NCBI GenBank assembly: GCA_963786425.1
Contig: CAWAZB010000001.1
Location: 672,254-736,253 of the forward strand
Origin: an uncultured Alphaproteobacteria bacterium
GTDB taxonomy: Bacteria; Pseudomonadota; Alphaproteobacteria; Rhizobiales; Methyloligellaceae
Direction: 5' to 3'
DNA: 64,000 nt
The position numbers were made by a program, and so were the translations under genes. Below the pieces are notes generated by a model. It did not search any database. It saw nothing but the letters and a program-made list of their open reading frames with translations, and was not told where the DNA came from. Below, one piece after another: positions 14,971-58,334 of this stretch (its first letter is position 1; every line of letters begins with the position of its first letter).

Positions 14971-15147
14971 TTCGGATGCTCGGTTTCGTCGGTAGGTAAG
15001 ATCGAAACGACTATGCCAGCCGATCTTGGTCGGCGATAGGGACCTTAACCCCTGTCACTCGCGCGCCGCGGAATGGCTTGCGGAGATGACGGAACCGTCC
15101 GCACTGCTCTATCGTCATAGGAAGCGGAGGTCTTTCAAATCGGGACT

Positions 15148-16068
15148 ATGAGCGTCTTCACCCTCGCCCATCTTTCGGACATTCATCTCGGCCCGATGCC
15201 CCGGGCGCGGCGCCGCGACCTTATGAGCAAGCGCATGCTCGGTTACGTGAACTGGCACCAGGGCCGGAAGCTGGTGCATCAGCGCGACGTTCTAGAGGTG
15301 CTGACACGCGACATCATCGAGCGGAACCCGGACCACATCGCCGTCACGGGCGACCTCGTCAATATCGGGCTTCCCGGCGAGTTCGAGATGGCCGCGGAGT
15401 GGCTGCGCGAGCTCGGGCCCCCCGACCGCGTGACCGCTATTCCCGGCAACCACGACGCCTATGTGCGGCTGCATCCCGAACAGGGCACGGTGCGGTGGCT
15501 GCCTTATATGCAGTCGAACGAAGCGGGCGAAAAGCTGTCGCCGACGCCGGCTTCTGGTTTTCCGTTTCTGCGCCGCTTCGGCGACATCGTGCTTGTGGCG
15601 CTCTCCTCCGCCATTCCCACTTTGCCCTTCATCGCCGCCGGCCGCGTCGGCTCGGCGCAACGCGCGCTGCTTCCCCCCTTGCTTGAAGAGCTCGGCCGGC
15701 AGGGCCTCTTTCGGGTGGTTCTCATCCATCATCCACCCCTCCCCGGCCAAGTCGGCTGGCGGCGAGGCCTCCGCGATGCGGCAGCGCTGACCCGCATATT
15801 GAAGGAGTCAGGCACCGAGCTCGTGCTGCATGGGCACAATCACGAGCAGACCGAATATGAGCTTGAGACGATTTCCGGGACGGCCGTCGTCGTTGGCGTG
15901 CCCTCCGCCTCGGAGGCGGTGTCGGGTAAAATCCCGGCCGCTCGCTACAACGAATACCGCATCAAGAAGCTGAAAAACGGCTGGGAGTGCGAGATGGTCG
16001 GACGCATCGTGGGGGAAGATGCGCTGACGGTGCGCGAATGCGAGCGGAAATTGCTTCGCGCGCCATGA
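15148..16068 (+). CDS. Metallophosphoesterase (calcineurin-like)
   Basis: HLSDIH, TGDLVN, PGNHD, LHGHNH motifs. Confidence 0.92.
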   Translation: MSVFTLAHLSDIHLGPMPRARRRDLMSKRMLGYVNWHQGRKLVHQRDVLEVLTRDIIERNPDHIAVTGDLVNIGLPGEFEMAAEWLRELGPPDRVTAIPGNHDAYVRLHPEQGTVRWLPYMQSNEAGEKLSPTPASGFPFLRRFGDIVLVALSSAIPTLPFIAAGRVGSAQRALLPPLLEELGRQGLFRVVLIHHPPLPGQVGWRRGLRDAAALTRILKESGTELVLHGHNHEQTEYELETISGTAVVVGVPSASEAVSGKIPAARYNEYRIKKLKNGWECEMVGRIVGEDALTVRECERKLLRAP

Positions 16069-24094: not shown

Positions 24095-27000
24095 CTAGCG
24101 ATACGCTGCGGGCGCGTTGCCCCAAGTCCATTGCGCGCCGACCCGGCCGCCCCAGACATCGTCACCCTGGCCTTCCTCGAAGCCGACGCCGAAGCCGCCG
24201 CCGAGAGAGATGCGGTCGCCTGGCTTCAGGACATCGCGGCCGAGTACGCCGGCGAAGGTCCAGCTCAGCGCGCTTGCACCTTCGAAGTTGCCGTAGTTCG
24301 CCCGCATACCGAACCGCTCATTGCCGATCAGGTCCGGATCCTCCATCGACATTGCGAGGGCGATGCCGGATTCGGCTTCGTCGAGGCGCTTGAAGATCTC
24401 GCCGCCATCCGTGGCGAGGTGTCCTCCGGCGTCGGAGGTCACGACCTCCAATGGGCCGGTCTGCCGCGAGCGGCTGAGGCCGGAAGTAATGCCCCGCGCC
24501 GTGTAGGTATGGTCGCCGGTGCCGAGCACGAACTCATTCTCGCGGTCGGAGAAGGCGCCCTCGCCATCGGCATTCGTACCGATCGCCACCGAGCCTGAAG
24601 CCGTGGCTGAGGTGTTGGCACCGACTGCCAAGGCGTTCGGGCTTGTTGCGTAAGAGGAGTAGCCAACGGCCGTATTGTTGGTGCCGATGGCTTGGGCGTA
24701 ACCGCCGACCGCCGTATTGCCGTTGCCGCCGAACGCATCGGAACCATTGCCGAGAGCGTTATTGTTGTATCCCGGTCCGGCGTAGGAATGGGCACCGAAG
24801 GCCGAGGCATGTCTGCCGGAGGCGTAGGACAAATAGCCGTTCGCCGTCGCATGGTATCCGCTCGCCTTGGAGAAGGTGCCGGTCGCGCTGGATCCAGCTC
24901 CGGTCGCCGCTGCATAGGCACCGGAAGCAGTGCCCCGGTACCCAGAAGCCAGCGAATTGTAGCCGCTCGCGGAGGACTGGTAGCCGCTGGCAAGGGCATA
25001 GACGCCGCTTGCCGTGGAACCTTGGCCGCTCGCGACCGCACCGGCAGCAAAGGCCGCCGAATTGGTGCCGGTTGCCTTGGCCTCGTCGCCGATGGCCGTG
25101 CTCTGGGTTCCGCTGGCCGTGGCTTCTTCACCGATGGCGACCGCGCTTTCGCCGCTGGCGAGAGCCTCGTCGCCGATGGCGACGCTGTCCTCACCGGAGG
25201 CCGTGCTGCCGCTGCCGGCCGCGAAGGAACTCATCGCCCGTCGCGAGGTTGCCGGTACCGACTGCGGTAGCGCCGGCGCCCGTGGCTGCGTTGAGATTGC
25301 CAAGCGCCGTTGCACCGATTCCGGTGGCGGCGTTGAGCGTGCCCAACGTGGTTGAGCCGACGCCTGAGGCCAGGGACACGCTACCGACGGAGGTTGCGCC
25401 TGCCGCGGTGGCGAAGGTCAGCGTGCCAAGCGCCGTGCTGCCGAGCCCGGTCGATTGCGCACCAAGACCAAAGGCTGAGCTGCCGAGCCCGGTGGCATCG
25501 GAGGCGGAGCCGACTGCCGTCGAGCCGAGGCCCGAGGCGGTGGTGGTATCACCGATGGCGACGCTGCTCGTGCCGGAGGCGGTGCTGCCTTGACCAATAG
25601 CAGTGGCATCTTCCGCCGAGGCAGTGTTGTTGTTGCCGACGGTGATTCCGTTTTCGTCGGACACGGTATTGCCGTTGCCGAGAACCGCCGCGTTTTCGCC
25701 CTCGACGGAGTTGTCGTTACCGACGACGTTCGAGTTCGCTGCGCTGACCGCCGTGGCCACCGTGTTGCCGCTACCGAGGATGTTGACGTTGTCGCCATCC
25801 CCAATGCCGACGGGCGAGTTCACGATGTTGTTGTTACCGTGGATGGAGGCATTGCCGGCATTCACGACGTTGGCAATGCCGGTGACGGTGGTGCTGCCCG
25901 GATTTGCCGAAACAGCAGCGCTTGAGTCGACGACGTTGTCATTGCCGACGACGAAGGTGTCGTCGCCGACGATCACATTTGGATCGCCGAAGGCGAAGCT
26001 GCCGTCGCCTGTCACAGTATTGTCCGTGCCGAACGCGCCGCTGTTGTTTCCGGTCACGCTATTGTTGGAACCGACAACTGTGGTATCGGCGCCGTCTGCG
26101 GTGTTACCGGCGCCGACTGCAGTCGAGTTGTCACCCTTAGCGGCGTTTTTGGAACCGAAGGCGCTCGAATTGTTGCCCGAAGCAGTATTTTGGGTGCCGA
26201 CCGCCGTCGAATAGTCGCCATAGGCCTTGTTGAAGGATCCGAGCGCCGTCGATTGCTTGCCGTCGGCGATATTGCCGGAGCCGACCGCCGAGGCATTGAT
26301 GTCGGAGGCCTTATTGAAAGCGCCGAGAGCCGTGGCGCCATCCGCAGTCGCCTGCGACGAAAAGCCAAAGGCGGAGCTAAACAGGCTGTTGGCCTTCGAG
26401 AGGGCGCCCACCGCCGTCGATCCGGCTCCCGACGCGCTGCTCTTATAGCCGCCGGCAAAGCTGATCCCGCCGGTTGCCGCCGAGTAAGCGCCGACCGCGG
26501 CATCGCCCTTATTTGTCGCGGAACTCTTATAACCGCCGGCGAAGCTCTGGGCCCCGCTGGCCGAAGAAAGTGCCCCAACCGCAGTCGCGACCTTGTCCGT
26601 CGCACTGCTTCCCGCGCCGAGCGCGGTCGCCCCGCCCTTCGTGGCGTTTGCTCCATAGCCGCCGGCGAAGCTGAAGGCGCCGTCAGCATTGGAGGTGCCG
26701 CCGATCGCGGTGGAGCCCTTGCCGTCAGAGGAAGATGCGATACCGACTGCGGTGCTGTTCACGCCAGCGGTGGCCGTATTGGCCAAGTAGCCGATACTAG
26801 TCGCTCCAGCGACAGCCGCAATCGGACCAGAAAAGGCGCCAACCGACGTCGACTGGGCACCGAGCGAATAAGATGCGGTGCCGATCGCAGTGCTGCCTGC
26901 GCCCTTAGCTTGAGAGTTGTTGCCGAACGCAGACGCATTGATCGCAGTGTTCGCAATCGCCTTGTCACCGACGGCGGTGTTGCCGTATTTGGCCTTGGCG

Positions 27001-28016
27001 CCGGCGCCGATGGCGACCGAGTCATAGGCGACCGCGCCTGTGCCGATGGCGGTGCCGTTCACTCCCTTGGACGCTGCGCCAGTACCGATGGCGATGCCGT
27101 TCGTTGCATCCTTCTGAGTAAAGGCCCCGTCCCCGATGGCAATGCTGCTCGCGCCCTTTGCGCTCGCCCCATACCCGTTGGCGATGCTATTCGCTCCCTT
27201 GGCATATGCGCCGGTCCCGAATGCTTGCGCGTTCTTACCAGTCGCCTTCGAATTGACCCCCTGCGCGATGGCAGAGTAGCCGGACGAGTAAGCGTTGTTG
27301 CCGACGGCGATGCTCCCAGTGTTGGTCGCCTGGGCAGGCGACGCCACACCACCCCCGATGGCGACAGAGAAGTCACCGCTCGCTTTGGTGTTGGCGCCAA
27401 CAGCGGTGGCCGCCGTGCCGCTGGCTGTCGAGAAGCCGCCGAGTGCCGTTGCCCAATCTTCCGACGCCGTAGAGCTGGCGCCACCTGCGAAGGATTTGTT
27501 GCCGGAGGCGTAGGCCTTGGTGCCGACAGCGGTGGCGTTCTTGTCTGTCGCTTTGGCGTAATTGCCGATCGCCGTTGCATCTTTGGCGGTAGCGTAAGTA
27601 TTGCTGCCGAGTGCCGAAGCGCCCGCGCCGGTGGCTGTCGCCTGGTCACCGAAGGCGGAAGCAGCGGTAGCAGCCGTGCCGCCGCCGACGGCTTTGGCGC
27701 CGAAGCCCACAGCACTCGCGTAATCTTTTGCATAGGCGTACGGGCCGCAGGCGAAAGAGTTCCCACTCGCATATTGCGTTAAAGTCGCGCCGACTGGCTG
27801 GAGCAGCCCGCAGATCTCTGCATTTGCCGGTTGCGGGGCGGCGGTCATGCCAACAGTTAAGGCGACCGCGCCAGCGCCGATGGCGGTCGCTGCCGCCCCG
27901 AGCGCCCTCTTTTTCTGCTTCGGAGGTCGCGCCGCGAAGGCGCTCCCAAGCCCGGCCGCGATGGCAACCGTGCTATAGCTCGTCGAATTGAGCAGTCCCT
28001 GACGCGTCTTCCGCAT
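24095..28016 (-). CDS. Trimeric autotransporter adhesin 1 (YadA-like head repeats plus anchor), one apparent frameshift at ~25230
   Basis: Many 14-residue xAIG/AVG head repeats, GxxN repeats, neck EFVLGT..YT, anchor GIALAMSM...GGRVGAQWTW; frames 25191-28016 and 24095-25315 join at ...ATGD/SSFAAG. Confidence 0.9.
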
Positions 28017-28393: not shown

Positions 28394-29917
28394 CTAAAGC
28401 ATGCCGAGGCGGCGCCAGATGGGAACATGCTTCTCCAGAATTGGGCGCATGCGCTCGGTCAGCGTCGCGAGCGCCGCGTCATCGTCGTGCACCGCCTCCC
28501 CGTCCTTCACCACCACGCGGCCGAGTGCCTTGACCCTCGACAGGGCGTCGGCGGAGATCTTCTCGAGCTCCGTCGTGCCCTCCATCACGCAGGCGACGGC
28601 AAGCAAGCCGAGCTCGCCGACGCCGAGGCCTGTTCGCGCCAAGGGCGAGGCAAGCGTGTTGTACATGCGGCCGGCGCGCGCCTGCTCCACGACCATGCGG
28701 TTGAAGCGCTTGGCCGGCTCGGTGTCCGGCTCCGGCGGCAACAGCGCCACCGCCTGGCCGGAGTGGACGAGAAGACCAAGACATTCGAGCAAAATGCTGA
28801 GCTTTCCGTCAAAGGCATCGAGCACCGCCAGTTCGTCGAAGGGGACGATGCGGTCCGCCAGCGCGTCGGCGATGGGGGCATAGAGGTCTTCCCGGCCTTG
28901 CAGCTGCTGTAAGGGGCCGGCAAAGGTGAAAACGACGTTTTCGCGCGGCACGGCGAGCGTAAATTTCAATTGCGAAAGCAGACGCCGATGCTCGGCGCTG
29001 GTGAGCGCCGGCGTTCCGCGCGCGAAATAATCGCGCCGGAAGCGACGATTGCCGCACATGTCGCGAACGGCTTCGCGCAGGCGGAAATTCTGCATCTCGG
29101 CAATAAGCGGACGAAGATCGGCCGGGATCGTATAGACGTCGAGATTCTCGGGAAGCGCCGCGGAGGCAACGAAGGAGAGTTTCGCCGCGCCGAGCCGGTC
29201 GACCATCTCGGAGAATTGGAACAGCTGCCAATGCTCGTCGAGATATTCATGGGCCATGTAGACCCGGTCCATCTTCGCCATCGCCTCGACATGCTGTGCC
29301 GCGGCGGGATTGCCGAGGAAGAAGGCCGCCTTCCCCTCCTTCAGCTTGGTGACGAGGTTGAGGGCGAGGTCGATCTGGCGCGAGGAGTGGCCGGGATTTT
29401 GGCGCTTTACCTCCACCATGAACTGGCGGATCGGCGCGAGCGGGGCCCAGCCCGGCATGCAATTATAGGAGATATAGACGAAGCCGTTCGGCTTCAGCCG
29501 CTGGCGGAGGATTTGCACGATCGCATCCTGCGATTCCGGAGAGATCCAGGCGAAGATGCCGTGCAGCGCGATGACGTCGAAATCGTTGTCGCCGCCTTTC
29601 GCCGCGAGCTCCTCGAAGCTCATCTCCGCCACCTTGATGTTCTCAAGGCCGGCATCGGCAATCAGACGCCGCGCATTGGCGACATGCTCGGGGTTGAAAT
29701 CGATGCCTTCGAATTGAGTGTCGCGATTTGCGGCGGCGAGCAGAGCGAGACCGAAGCCCTGGCCGAAGCCAAGCTCAAGATAGCGGGCGGGCTTGAAGGC
29801 TTCACCCGGGGAGCGGCCGAGCATCAGGGCGATAAAGGCCATGTGGCTCGCCGCCGTCTCCCGGTAAAAGCCGGCGGTATAGGCAATGTCGGCGACGTAG
29901 CCGCCCGTCCAGTTCAT
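28394..29917 (-). CDS. SAM-dependent methyltransferase with methyltransferase-regulatory domain (rickettsial PKMT-like)
   Basis: YLELGFGQG, FDVIALHGIFAW, NGFVYISYNCMPGW, YMAHEYL, NRRFRRD motifs. Confidence 0.85.
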   Translation of the reverse strand: MNWTGGYVADIAYTAGFYRETAASHMAFIALMLGRSPGEAFKPARYLELGFGQGFGLALLAAANRDTQFEGIDFNPEHVANARRLIADAGLENIKVAEMSFEELAAKGGDNDFDVIALHGIFAWISPESQDAIVQILRQRLKPNGFVYISYNCMPGWAPLAPIRQFMVEVKRQNPGHSSRQIDLALNLVTKLKEGKAAFFLGNPAAAQHVEAMAKMDRVYMAHEYLDEHWQLFQFSEMVDRLGAAKLSFVASAALPENLDVYTIPADLRPLIAEMQNFRLREAVRDMCGNRRFRRDYFARGTPALTSAEHRRLLSQLKFTLAVPRENVVFTFAGPLQQLQGREDLYAPIADALADRIVPFDELAVLDAFDGKLSILLECLGLLVHSGQAVALLPPEPDTEPAKRFNRMVVEQARAGRMYNTLASPLARTGLGVGELGLLAVACVMEGTTELEKISADALSRVKALGRVVVKDGEAVHDDDAALATLTERMRPILEKHVPIWRRLGML

Positions 29918-30047: not shown

Positions 30048-30851
30048 CTATTGCGCCGGAGCGGCCGGCGGCGCGGCTTGCGGAGCCGGCTGCTGCGCCC
30101 GGCGCTGGTCGGCTTCCTGCACGGCCTGGTTGATCTGCTGCTGGCGGCGCCGCTGAATGGCGGCGATGACCTGCTGACGCGACGCCTGATATTGCTGAAT
30201 ATTGGTCGATGCGCCGGCGAGCGTCGTCGCAAAACCGCCAAGCGGGAGCGAGAACTTGACCGGCCGCTTATTGGCGCCGACCGCCTCGATGGCGATTTCC
30301 TTGCCCGACTTCATCTGGTCGAGCGTGCCGGCGGGCAGTTTCACTTCCGCCGTGCAGCCGATCTGCAGGCAACTCATGTAGTCGAGCTTAATCGGCTTGC
30401 CGTTGTCGATCTTGGCGACCACCCCGCCCCGCAAATCGAGGCCGAGGGGAACGATCACGGTGAGAAAGTCTCCATCCGTGCCCTCCTGCTGACGCACCGA
30501 TCCGGAGAAGACGAGGCCGCCATCGGTGTTATTCACGCGCTCCTGCAAGGTCACGCAGAGATTGACCTCCTTGGTGGCGGCCTGGTCGGGCGGCGTACCC
30601 GCCGCGGGTGGATTAGCCGCGACGGTGATCTTGTCGCATAATTTCGTCCAGGGCGATTTCGGCTGCTGCGCTTGTTGGGCTTGTTGCGCAGGCTGAGCCG
30701 CTGCGGGTGGCTGCTGTGCCTGCTGCTGCTGGCGGCCGCGCACCTGCTGGGCCTCGGCTATGGCTGACACGGCCAAAAAGCCGGCGGCAAAAATGCCAAG
30801 GAAACGGACTGAATGAAGGACGGAACCAGACTTTATCTGCATGTTGCTCAT
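30048..30851 (-). CDS. Invasion-associated locus B (IalB) family protein
   Basis: Signal peptide, Gln-rich linker, SPWTKLC, VPLGLDLRGG, YMSCLQIGCTAEV, FSLPLGGF. Confidence 0.85.
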   Translation of the reverse strand: MSNMQIKSGSVLHSVRFLGIFAAGFLAVSAIAEAQQVRGRQQQQAQQPPAAAQPAQQAQQAQQPKSPWTKLCDKITVAANPPAAGTPPDQAATKEVNLCVTLQERVNNTDGGLVFSGSVRQQEGTDGDFLTVIVPLGLDLRGGVVAKIDNGKPIKLDYMSCLQIGCTAEVKLPAGTLDQMKSGKEIAIEAVGANKRPVKFSLPLGGFATTLAGASTNIQQYQASRQQVIAAIQRRRQQQINQAVQEADQRRAQQPAPQAAPPAAPAQ

Positions 30852-31041: not shown

Positions 31042-31875
31042 ATGCAAAACGGCATTCACTTTATATCCGGGTTGCCGCGATCCGGTTCGACGCTGCTTGC
31101 CGGCATCCTCCGCCAGAACCCGAAATTTCACGCCGGCATGTCCTCGCCGGTCGGTTCGCTCGTCAATCAATTGCTCGCCGGCATGGGCGCCAACGCCGAA
31201 TTTTCCGTCTTCATCGACGAGGAGCAACGCCGCGACGTGCTGCGCGGCCTCTTCGACGGCTATTACCGCAAGATCCACACCGAGCAGTTGGTCTTCGACA
31301 CCAATCGCGCTTGGTGCAGCCGCATGTCGGCGCTGAGCACGCTGTTTCCCGAAGCGCGAGTAATTGCCTGCGTGCGCGACCCGATCCGCATCGTCGATTC
31401 CTTCGAGCGCTTGGTCCGCAAGAACTCGCTGCTCATCTCGCGCATGTTTCCCGGCGACGCCAACGCCACGGTTTTTACGCGCGTCGACCACCTCACCTCG
31501 AAACTCGGCACCGTCGGCTTTGCCTGGAACGCGCTGCAAGAGGCCTTCTACGGCGACCAGGCCGATCGCCTCATCGTTGTCGACTATGAGGCCCTGGCGC
31601 GGGAGCCGGAAGAAACGATGCGGAAAATCTACGAGTTTCTCAGCCTCCCCTACTTCAAGCACGATTTCGACAATGTGAGCTATGAGGGCGGCGGCGAGTT
31701 CGATCACTGGCTCGGGGTGCCGGGCCTGCATGCGATCGGGCAGAAGGTGCGTTTTCAGGAGCGGAAGCCGGTCCTTCCGCCGGAGATCGTGCGCCGTTTC
31801 GCCAATCAGCGCTTCTGGCGCGAAAAGGGCGTCTCCAAGGCGAAGGTTCTGCTCCCGGAAGCGGAATTCGTCTAG
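31042..31875 (+). CDS. Sulfotransferase, RaxST-like (putative protein tyrosine sulfotransferase)
   Basis: HFISGLPRSGSTLLA (5'-PSB loop), VFDTNRAWCSR, CVRD..IVDSFERL, AFYGD.ADRL, PGLH, VLPP. Confidence 0.88.
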   Translation: MQNGIHFISGLPRSGSTLLAGILRQNPKFHAGMSSPVGSLVNQLLAGMGANAEFSVFIDEEQRRDVLRGLFDGYYRKIHTEQLVFDTNRAWCSRMSALSTLFPEARVIACVRDPIRIVDSFERLVRKNSLLISRMFPGDANATVFTRVDHLTSKLGTVGFAWNALQEAFYGDQADRLIVVDYEALAREPEETMRKIYEFLSLPYFKHDFDNVSYEGGGEFDHWLGVPGLHAIGQKVRFQERKPVLPPEIVRRFANQRFWREKGVSKAKVLLPEAEFV

Positions 31876-31879
31876 ACGA

Positions 31880-31968
31880 TGGTGCGGACGGAGGGAGTCG
31901 AACCCTCACGACCCTCTCGGGTCTCAGGATTTTAAGTCCTGTGTGTCTACCAGTTCCACCACGTCCGC
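31880..31968 (-). tRNA. tRNA-Leu(TAA)
   Basis: GCGGACG acceptor stem, CAGGA-CTTAAAA-TCCTG anticodon arm, long variable arm, GGTTCGACTCC, encoded CCA. Confidence 0.97.
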
Positions 31969-35642: not shown

Positions 35643-38333
35643 CTACCAGCCGAAGGTCATGCCAGCGCGGCCAGCCACCTCGCCCTCTTCGGTGCCGGCG
35701 CCGAAGCCGCCATCGACCACGAGCGAGCCGAAGCCCGGCCGCAGCAGATTGGTGGCGAGCACGCCTGCCAGCGTGACGCTGACGGCATTCGCGTCGTCAT
35801 AGGTGCCCCAGCCGGCGCGCAGGGCGACGGTTTGGCCGGGAAGCAGAACCGGCTGCGCCATCGACGAGACGGCTGCGATGCCTTCCGTGAGCTGCCGATC
35901 CCGATTCTGCAAATTGCTGAGTTGGGATTGTATGCCGGCGATTTCTCCCGTGGTGGCAATTCCGAGTTCCGTCGGCGTATAGGCGGCGAGATCGCCATTC
36001 GCGTTCGATGTCACGAGAAAGTCTGGAGAGCCTTGCGCATTTCTGCTTGCGGCCGAGGTGACGCCCGACAGGGTGTAAGTGGAGGATTTGGTGCCGACCA
36101 TCACTTGATCGGCGCGCGTCGTCGCGGCGCCTGCTCCGATCGCCGTCGAATTGGTGTGACCTGCCGCTACCACCGCTCCGGCGCCGAAGGCGCTGCCATT
36201 GTCCGCCGCGACAGTGGCGCCTTGCCCGACGGCGGTGTCGCCGGGGCCGCCGGCATAGGAACCGGCACCGACAGCGACCGAGCCGTTCCGCGCCTCCGCA
36301 AAGGTGCCGAGCGCGGTGCTGTAACCGCCAAAGGCATAGGCACGGCTGCCGACAGCCGCGTTGCCTTTTCCGCCATACGCCTTTGATTTACTGCCGAGAG
36401 CGGCGTTGTAATAACCGGCGCCGGCATAGGCATAGGCGCCAAAGGCAGACCCACGCTCTCCTCCGGCGCTGGAATTATAGCCGCTGGCAGTTGATTGATA
36501 CCCGCTCGCCAACGAATTGGCGCCTATCGCCGACGCACCGGTGGCTGAAGCTTTCGAAGCCCGGCCGAGTGCCGTTGCATCGGCACCACTCGCTGCAGAA
36601 TTTTCGCCGAAGGCCGACGACCCAACGCCGCTTGCATAGGCGTAATAACCGGTCGACGTGGCGGCGAGAGCGGTCGCCTTGGAACTCGCGCCGACGGACG
36701 TGGAATAGGCGCCGGTCGCCTCCGAGCCCGTGCCGAAGGCAGACGAATGCTTGCCGAGCGCCGAGGCGTGGTCGCCGACCACTGTCGCGTATTCCGCGAC
36801 ATTCGCGAGAGCATCGGCCCCAATGGCCGTGTTGAGGAATTTGGAATTGGAGCCTGCGCCGATCGCAATGGCACTATCGGCAATGGCTCCATCGCCGATG
36901 GCAATGGCATCCAGGCTCAGCGCCTTCGCTTCTTTGCCGATAGCGACTGAATTATGCGACCCCGTATAGGCCCCGTCACCGATCGCGACGCTGCTCGTGC
37001 CGAGCGCCTTGCTCTTATAGCCGCCCGCAAAGCTCTTTTCGCCGGACGCTGCGCTCTCGAAGCCGAAGGCGCTTGAATTCACCCCCGCGGCATCGCTTCC
37101 AGCGCCGACCGCGGTTGCTCCGTCCCCTCCTGCGGTGCTCACATAGCCTGCAGCGAAGCTGAAGACACCTTTCGCCGAGGTATAGGCGCCGATCGCCGCA
37201 GAGCCTTTGCCGACAGAATTAGCGTCGAAGCCGATCGCCGTGCTGTTGACGCCAGCCGAGTTTGAATTTGCGAAAGTGCCGATGCTCGTTACGCCGGCGG
37301 TTGCGGCGATGGGCCCCGACTGGAAGCCGACTGACGTTGAGTTCTTGCCGAGTGCGAAGGCCTCATCGCCGATTGCCGTGCTGTTATCGCCGGTGGCTTT
37401 GGATCCGTTGCCAAAGGCCGACGAATCTTCGGCGACATTCGCCAGCGCGCCGTCGCCGACGGCGGTATTGCCGTATTTGGCCTTGGCGCCGGCACCGATG
37501 GCGACCGAGTCGTAGGCGATCGCGCCCGTGCCGATGGCCGTGCCGTTAATGCCCAATGATTTGGCGCCGGTGCCGACCGCGATGCCATTCGTCGCGGCCG
37601 TAGCGGTGTAGGCGCCGTCGCCGATGGCCACGCTGCTCATGCCAAGAGCGTTGCCCTTATATCCGCCCGCGAAGCTCTTAGCGCCGGACGCCGTCGTGCT
37701 GAAGCCGAAGGCACTCGAACCTGCGCCCGAAGCGGTGTTACTACTGCCGACCGCCGACGAATAATCGCCATTGGCTTGGTTAAAGAAACCGATCGCCGTG
37801 GATTGCTTGCCGTCGGCCACGTTGCTGGAACCGACCGCCGTGGCGTTCGTATCGGAGGCCTGGTTGAAGGTACCGAGCGCGGTCGCGCCATCGGCGCTAG
37901 CCGCGGATAAGAAGCCCAAAGCCGACGTGAACAGTGCGGTGGCTTTGGAATTAGCGCCGACTGCCGTCGACCCGGCGCCTGAGGCGAGGCTCTTGTAGCC
38001 ACCAGCGACGCTGACGCCGCCGCTCGCGACGGCACCCGCTCCGCAGGCAGTCGACGTGGCGAGCGGCGCGTTGCCCTGCGCCGGCTGCGCGATAACGTTG
38101 GGCGCGACGAAGGTGCCGCAGACGGCGCCCTGCGCATAGGCGGATGTGCCTGGCACGGCGACAACCGTCAGGGCGGTAGCCGCAATTCCGAGTGTCACAC
38201 CAATGGCTGCTTGCGCGGCTCGCCTCGATGATCTCATCGGCGGACGCGACTTAAACGCGGTTCCGAGGTCAGCCGCGACCGCGACGGTGCTGTAGCTCGC
38301 AGAGTTGAGCAGTCCCTGACGCGTTTTGCGCAT
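35643..38333 (-). CDS. Trimeric autotransporter adhesin 2 (YadA-like), intact
   Basis: Head repeats, neck QVMVGT..YT, coiled coil, anchor ending GRAGMTFGW; leader nearly identical to adhesin 1. Confidence 0.92.
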   Translation of the reverse strand: MRKTRQGLLNSASYSTVAVAADLGTAFKSRPPMRSSRRAAQAAIGVTLGIAATALTVVAVPGTSAYAQGAVCGTFVAPNVIAQPAQGNAPLATSTACGAGAVASGGVSVAGGYKSLASGAGSTAVGANSKATALFTSALGFLSAASADGATALGTFNQASDTNATAVGSSNVADGKQSTAIGFFNQANGDYSSAVGSSNTASGAGSSAFGFSTTASGAKSFAGGYKGNALGMSSVAIGDGAYTATAATNGIAVGTGAKSLGINGTAIGTGAIAYDSVAIGAGAKAKYGNTAVGDGALANVAEDSSAFGNGSKATGDNSTAIGDEAFALGKNSTSVGFQSGPIAATAGVTSIGTFANSNSAGVNSTAIGFDANSVGKGSAAIGAYTSAKGVFSFAAGYVSTAGGDGATAVGAGSDAAGVNSSAFGFESAASGEKSFAGGYKSKALGTSSVAIGDGAYTGSHNSVAIGKEAKALSLDAIAIGDGAIADSAIAIGAGSNSKFLNTAIGADALANVAEYATVVGDHASALGKHSSAFGTGSEATGAYSTSVGASSKATALAATSTGYYAYASGVGSSAFGENSAASGADATALGRASKASATGASAIGANSLASGYQSTASGYNSSAGGERGSAFGAYAYAGAGYYNAALGSKSKAYGGKGNAAVGSRAYAFGGYSTALGTFAEARNGSVAVGAGSYAGGPGDTAVGQGATVAADNGSAFGAGAVVAAGHTNSTAIGAGAATTRADQVMVGTKSSTYTLSGVTSAASRNAQGSPDFLVTSNANGDLAAYTPTELGIATTGEIAGIQSQLSNLQNRDRQLTEGIAAVSSMAQPVLLPGQTVALRAGWGTYDDANAVSVTLAGVLATNLLRPGFGSLVVDGGFGAGTEEGEVAGRAGMTFGW

Positions 38334-57503: not shown

Positions 57504-58334
<831 letters not shown>

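Follow-up and report, generated by a model that had tools for sequence, protein, structure and literature searches.

The stretch of DNA analyzed here, referred to as the window, spans 64,000 nucleotides (C1:672254-736253) of the genome of an uncultured alphaproteobacterium of the family Methyloligellaceae, which comprises 2.56 Mb in five contigs and is 92.8% complete. At 31042..31875 on the + strand, the window harbors an intact open reading frame (ORF) for a protein of 277 amino acids, which lacks a signal peptide and is predicted to be cytoplasmic. This protein, here called ST, is annotated as a TPST-like, PAPS-dependent sulfotransferase of the RaxST family on the basis of the ORF, a match to PF13469, an alignment to RaxST, an AlphaFold2 model searched with Foldseek, and dN/dS ratios. 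The gene encodes a 5'-phosphosulfate-binding (5'-PSB) motif, SGLPRSGSTLL, at 31066..31098 (+; alignments to RaxST and TPST1) and a 3'-phosphate-binding (3'-PB) motif, RDPIRIVDS, at 31375..31401 (+; RaxST alignment). A tRNA-Leu(UAA) gene, identified with ARAGORN, is found at 31880..31968 on the - strand, i.e., 5 bp past the ST stop codon.

The genes around ST are those of an adhesin locus. Divergent from ST is the gene of an exported protein of the IalB family (30048..30842, -, where the ORF may reach 30956; PF06776), and at 28394..29917 (-) is found a methyltransferase in which a PKMT-type regulatory domain (PF10119, MethyTransf_Reg) is combined with class I methyltransferase domains; the PF10119 domain is typical of the rickettsial OmpB lysine methyltransferases. 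A YadA-type trimeric autotransporter adhesin (PF05658, YadA_head) occupies 24095..28016 (-) and is read as two overlapping ORFs (25191-28016 and 24095-25315). Its counterpart on contig L032, which belongs to the same species (97-98% DNA identity to the window genome), is a single gene of 1325 amino acids, while the ST gene of L032 (8001-8891) carries a 2-bp deletion after codon 17. Both the split adhesin in the window and the deletion in L032 are probably indel errors of long-read sequencing rather than true pseudogenes. A second YadA-type adhesin, recognized from its ORF and the same MRKTRQGLLNS leader, is found on the other side of ST at 35643..38333 (-). The genome holds three YadA-type loci altogether, of which two flank ST within 7 kb. 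The leader of the two flanking adhesins, MRKTRQGLLNS(T/A)SYSTVA (38333-38253 and 27936-28016, both -), is found nowhere else in the genome. This leader (MRKTRQGLLNS..SYS) was considered as a sulfation site and rejected, because a similar leader in a related locus, L133, is devoid of the tyrosine.

The assignment of ST to its family rests on several comparisons. The protein matches Pfam Sulfotransfer_3 (PF13469) with 80.5 bits, to be compared with a gathering threshold of 27 (E = 2.8e-22), and it also matches Sulfotransfer_1. The sole NCBIfam match, to NoeE (NF052394), scores 31.7 bits and is far below the cut-off of 500. In a BLASTP alignment to Xanthomonas oryzae RaxST, for which the reference was the Xoo PXO99A sequence of Fig. 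S6 in Liu et al. 2019 (PMC6637879), taken as machine-read text in which row 1 is short by about one residue and row 2 has one too many, 122 of 268 positions are identical (46%, with 62% positives; E = 7e-77; residues 6-271). ST and RaxST are thus of equal length and more similar than the approximately 40% identity that delimits the family. An earlier note on this DNA had pointed out four RaxST motifs in the translated ORF and had named a low full-length identity as an outcome that would speak against the assignment; all four motifs are indeed present in both proteins, i.e., HFISGLPR(S/A)GS(T/S)LLA..LRQNP, VFDTNRAWCSR, IVDSFERL and AFYGD(Q/H)ADRL, and the identity of 46% extends from end to end. 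The catalytic Arg-11 of the RaxST 5'-PSB motif corresponds to Arg-13 of ST, and Ser-118 of the 3'-PB motif to Ser-120. Across 44 homologues, residues G10, L11, P12, R13, G15, S16 and T17 of the former motif and R112, D119 and S120 of the latter are invariant. The dN/dS ratio of ST is 0.07 against the orthologue in L033 and 0.13 against that in L034, which indicates purifying selection, and the G+C content of the gene (0.617) does not deviate from that of the genome (0.63). A tblastn search of the genome with RaxST returned the ST ORF as the sole match. It is highly probable that ST is functional as a RaxST-family sulfotransferase.

The solved structures closest to ST in sequence are human TPST1 (E = 2e-6) and TPST2, followed by the sulfotransferase domains of OLS and CurM. 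An AlphaFold2 model, generated from 44 homologues (mean pLDDT 88.5, pTM 0.88), was used in a Foldseek search of the PDB, where the top 12 hits to the model are all TPST1/2 chains (E = 3e-9 to 7e-8, TM 0.56-0.60); next in order are the OLS and CurM domains, the tick TPST and heparan-sulfate 3-O-sulfotransferases. The human and tick TPST1/TPST2 enzymes are thus the closest solved structures, with PAPS motifs that align to those of ST, but the sequence identity is only ~20% and the TPSTs are membrane proteins of the Golgi lumen. In a phmmer alignment the segment CGEE, which holds the catalytic Glu of the TPSTs, is aligned to AGMS in ST, i.e., the Glu is not conserved; RaxST has ADVT at this position. 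Two residues upstream, His-30 of ST (FHAGMS; LHADVT in RaxST) is nearly invariant and is a possible candidate for the catalytic base. NoeE and NodH, which sulfate Nod factors in rhizobia, share a broad PAPS-dependent superfamily with ST and are also alphaproteobacterial, but the score against the NoeE model is far below its cut-off and there are no nod genes near ST.

In Xanthomonas, RaxST modifies the peptide RaxX, and its gene is accompanied by those of the peptide and its exporter. ST shares with RaxST the family, the cytoplasmic location and presumably PAPS as the sulfate donor; it differs in that adhesin, IalB and methyltransferase genes are found beside it, and in that RaxST, at the end of a long branch, falls elsewhere in the family tree. 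His-50 and Arg-129 of RaxST are essential for the RaxX-dependent activity (Liu et al. 2019, PMC6637879). In the BLASTP alignment these residues correspond to Ala-52 and Leu-131 of ST; the inactive AXO1947 variant of RaxST also carries a Leu at the Arg-129 position (PMC6637879). With both residues replaced, an acceptor other than RaxX is to be expected. The earlier note had reached the same view from the window, where it had seen neither a RaxX/PSY-like peptide nor type I secretion genes. The present data support its reading. A regular-expression search over the six frames of the 92.8%-complete genome returned neither the motif DY..P.AN..HDP nor any of three looser forms of it, so that the raxX gene elsewhere, raised in that note as a possible true substrate, is not found. 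Within C1:672254-736253 there is no match to a type I secretion ABC transporter or HlyD gene, and the ST locus holds neither a raxX precursor nor an adjacent raxA (HlyD-type) or raxB (C39-peptidase ABC) gene. The only C39-peptidase ABC transporter of the genome (catalytic motif ECGLAC) is found together with an HlyD gene on another contig, C4, and both are read as frameshifted; such frameshifts, which affect several genes here and in the long-read assemblies of relatives, are probably assembly errors. Ahead of the transporter and HlyD genes at this C4 site (65,000-69,000; L046:9067-12852) is an ORF for a Cys-rich protein of 113 amino acids that carries a signal peptide. From these observations, it becomes apparent that ST does not belong to a raxX-raxSTAB peptide system.

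The genome encodes an APS kinase, and the cysQ gene (3'(2'),5'-bisphosphate nucleotidase; 57504..58334, +; PF00459) that had been pointed out in the window is borne out by TIGR01331 (243.6 bits, cut-off 228.8); it is found 26 kb from ST, unlinked to it, and adjoins an EipA gene. Elsewhere in the same genome, at C5:1,090,300-1,103,600 (L047), six genes with sulfotransferase domains form a cluster that also encodes an ABC exporter and an asparagine synthase. This cluster probably makes a sulfated polysaccharide or glycolipid, and its six sulfotransferases are unrelated in sequence to ST.

In a maximum-likelihood tree of 86 family members, ST groups with its counterparts in L032, L033 and L034 (support 100/99). 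The ST proteins of the clade members L033, L034, L131, L132 and L133 are 71-81% identical to that of the window (76% for L033). Gene calls and tblastn revealed a conserved block composed of a Pro-rich membrane protein, a YadA-type adhesin, in some cases a PKMT-like methyltransferase, IalB and ST. A homologous YadA-type adhesin is found 1-4 kb from ST in L034, L131, L132 and L133, and IalB is adjacent to ST in all five of these relatives. L033 has kept IalB and ST, with no adhesin within 8 kb. In L132 the block is rearranged such that the methyltransferase, which here also carries a PF21782 (WHD_PKMT) domain, is located directly upstream of ST on the same strand and IalB downstream, while the linkage is kept. 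The outer flanks vary between the loci of the clade while the genes of the block stay together. IalB was also considered as a partner of ST throughout the family and rejected, since the IalB model matched beside the closest relatives only and not in the loci of 45-61% identity. L033 additionally harbors, at 15066-15326 (-), an ORF of 86 amino acids with a classical double-glycine leader (MRELTDRELDAVCGG), which adjoins HlyD and C39 transporter genes and is located 6 kb from ST.

Also in the wider family, sulfotransferase genes are found beside genes of large exported proteins. In 44 of 85 loci an ORF of at least 900 amino acids is found within 700 bp of ST (giant secreted adhesin genes), to be compared with about 12% of random positions in the window's genome; because the loci are phylogenetically related, these counts overstate their independence. 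In 29 of these 44 loci, which represent more than 15 families in three phyla, the large ORF encodes a giant protein that combines a DUF4347 domain at the N-terminus with Ig-like repeats; it starts 0-1 kb downstream of ST on the same strand. These giants often exceed 2,000 amino acids (e.g., L104:8830-16821, L095:8838-16802 and L113:8845-16179), and they occur in Bacteroidota and cyanobacteria as well as in Pseudomonas, Cellvibrio and Photobacterium; cysC is often found immediately upstream. Autotransporters of the ESPR type are found beside ST in five loci, and in L108 and L122, which belong to a separate ST clade, a YadA adhesin is divergently adjacent to ST; L108 shows no DNA similarity to the genome of the window. 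Fourteen loci have an APS kinase gene immediately upstream.

The sister clade (support 100/100) consists of eight rows, seven of which are linked to type I secretion genes. In L050, L052, L054, L055 and L130 the genes run from an ABC transporter through HlyD, a Gly/Tyr-rich ORF, ST and a secreted HExxH protein to DUF4440 proteins, where the transporter has a C39-like domain that is devoid of the catalytic Cys. The Gly/Tyr-rich ORFs, located between HlyD and ST (L050:7132-7902, L052:7143-7871, L054:5297-5587, L055:7299-7739 and L130:6465-6785), encode low-complexity proteins with up to about 50% tyrosine, for which no Pfam or NCBIfam match was found. The frame appears to be real, because its third-position G+C exceeds that of the other two frames, a GGAGG ribosome-binding site precedes it and, in L130, a separate pipeline also called it as a gene. 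Its carriers are Lichenihabitans, a Bradyrhizobium metagenome-assembled genome (MAG) and other alphaproteobacteria. If secreted proteins are sulfated at multiple sites, the Gly/Tyr-rich proteins are obvious candidates. In the genome of the window, neither orthologues of the transporter, HlyD, 323-aa protein and DUF4440 genes of the sister clade nor any Gly/Tyr-repeat ORF were found. From the neighborhoods across the family, it becomes apparent that each ST clade is accompanied by one class of large exported protein, in the way that RaxX accompanies RaxST.

The family is large, while the gene is rare among the relatives of its host. At least 7,260 related protein clusters are found in the protein database, and at least 404 reference genomes are carriers, of which the best 80 belong to alpha-, beta- and gammaproteobacteria, cyanobacteria, Bacteroidota, Mycobacterium and one planctomycete. 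Among the matches listed, the nearest named protein relatives are from Stellaceae, Lichenihabitans, Lichenibacterium and Bradyrhizobium genomes, mostly MAGs. An ST orthologue is found in none of 24 other sampled species of the genus, which implies that ST is dispensable for the lineage, in one of 16 other sampled families of the order and in seven of 400 sampled genomes of the class. When five complete genomes from the genus were compared with the DNA of the locus, the matches were limited to the tRNA and to an adenylate cyclase located elsewhere, and none of the window's genes was found in the 20-kb regions around tRNA-Leu in these five genomes.

Considered together, the data leave the acceptor to be deduced from gene context. 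The chances are about even that ST sulfates an exported protein in the cytoplasm, for which the neighboring adhesin is the most likely choice. That the acceptor is a tyrosine of a protein or peptide is somewhat more probable, and that it is specifically the adhesin is a more tentative proposal. Because ST has no signal peptide and PAPS is cytoplasmic, the modification must precede export, and RaxST also sulfates RaxX prior to removal of the leader. In the proposed scheme, the APS kinase would supply PAPS, ST would O-sulfate tyrosines of an exported protein encoded nearby before its export, and CysQ would remove PAP. The YadA-type adhesins would be the prime candidate acceptors and IalB the second. 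The head repeats of the adhesins carry G-D-Y-S/A-x-A sites, in which an Asp precedes the Tyr (position -1) as in RaxX and in TPST sites, and IalB carries a K-L-D-Y site. Several observations weigh against this assignment. Tyrosines are few in the adhesins (1.5-4% in most) and mostly in non-acidic contexts, and the tightest partner of ST is IalB rather than the adhesin, as seen in L033. The non-conserved TPST Glu, the absence of the gene from the 24 other sampled species of the genus and the presence of glycan and lipid sulfotransferases in Sulfotransfer_3 also count against it.

An alternative view is that the acceptor is a glycan, a lipopolysaccharide, a lipid or a small molecule, possibly a glycan borne by the adhesin. 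Many enzymes that act on carbohydrates or lipids belong to Sulfotransfer_3 and Sulfotransfer_1, NoeE is matched, if weakly (31.7 bits), the heparan-sulfate 3-OSTs and the CurM/OLS sulfotransferases are neighbors in fold, and the genome invests heavily in sulfation with its separate six-sulfotransferase cluster. However, the sole characterized close homologue (46%) is a tyrosine sulfotransferase, the TPSTs outrank every glycan enzyme by both sequence and fold, the NoeE score is far under 500, no glycosyltransferase or polysaccharide genes are found beside ST and the partner protein in the sister clade has a tyrosine content that reaches about 50%, so that a non-protein acceptor appears unlikely. 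Less likely still is a dispersed rax-like system, in which ST would sulfate a small ribosomal peptide other than RaxX, encoded elsewhere and exported by the only peptidase-containing ABC transporter of the genome. A true C39 transporter (ECGLAC) with HlyD does exist on C4, and in L033 an orthologous transporter (44-53% identity), HlyD and a peptide with a double-glycine leader are found 3-7 kb from ST. A regular-expression search of the 85 loci and of the transporter locus of the genome itself returned only this L033 peptide, i.e., no ORF with such a leader beside the genome's own transporter, which is read as frameshifted, as is HlyD, and located on another contig; moreover, there is no RaxX motif and the linkage of ST and transporter is seen in one relative only.

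A very improbable view is that ST is a horizontally acquired remnant without a present role, derived from a raxSTAB-like or type I secretion-linked cluster that lost its partners. Its patchy distribution (0/24 species in the genus, 1/16 families in the order, 7/400 genomes in the class), the tRNA gene immediately downstream, the transporter and Gly/Tyr-rich partners that the sister clade has and this genome lacks, and the 2-bp deletion in the ST of the same species in L032 would fit such an origin. On the other hand, the reading frame is intact with all family-invariant residues kept, purifying selection is strong, the G+C content is not deviant, the linkage to IalB and adhesin is conserved in relatives and the L032 indel may be an error of long-read assembly.

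Autotransporter adhesins are known to be tailored in the cytoplasm before export, as exemplified by methylation of rickettsial OmpB by PKMT and by the glycosylation performed by TibC, Aah and HMW1C. The ST locus is similar to these systems (PKMT1/2-OmpB, TibC, Aah and HMW1C) in that a soluble enzyme encoded beside an adhesin would modify this adhesin before its export, and in that a PKMT-like methyltransferase is present at the ST locus; it differs in the chemistry, where sulfation, for which no such case is documented, is proposed here from the gene context.

Sulfation of RaxX by RaxST is described as the only documented case of bacterial protein tyrosine sulfation (Liu et al. 2019, PMC6637879). 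The same study described raxST homologues, ~40% identical to RaxST and as long as it, from various Proteobacteria and Cyanobacteria (section 8, Fig. S4). A minority of strains carry them; raxX is absent and so, in most cases, is raxAB, and their surroundings are given as "diverse genetic contexts", with no substrate named. A genome-mining paper from 2024 obtained no novel RiPP clusters with RaxST as a query (PMC11143521). Because such orphan homologues were already described, the bare finding of ST is not new, and its novelty is less than the earlier note had assumed. ST represents the same phenomenon, including the patchy distribution; what is added here is that such genes repeatedly occur together with those of giant secreted adhesins or of Gly/Tyr-rich proteins of type I secretion. 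Literature searches returned no report in which sulfotransferases are tied to trimeric autotransporters or to DUF4347 proteins. It is plausible that ST, as a new member of the described orphan class, constitutes a new variant with testable substrates, given its conserved placement in an adhesin locus and the pairing with giant proteins throughout the family.

A broader, tentative proposal is that the RaxST family may serve in general to tailor large adhesins and matrix proteins in the cytoplasm before their export, such that tyrosine sulfation of bacterial proteins would be widespread and not a peculiarity of Xanthomonas. Each ST clade would then be paired with its own substrate class, i.e., DUF4347 type I secretion giants, ESPR autotransporters, YadA-type adhesins or Gly/Tyr-rich proteins, and in the window ST and the PKMT-like lysine methyltransferase may form a two-enzyme module that decorates the flanking adhesins. 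Because the neighborhoods of ST name candidate acceptors, the question of what raxST homologues do is turned into concrete experiments with the YadA-type adhesins and IalB of the window, the Gly/Tyr-rich proteins of the sister clade and the DUF4347 giants of cultured Pseudomonas, Cellvibrio, Photobacterium and cyanobacteria. If the adhesins are sulfated, a charged, heparan-sulfate-like modification would be added to the known means by which bacteria tune surface attachment.
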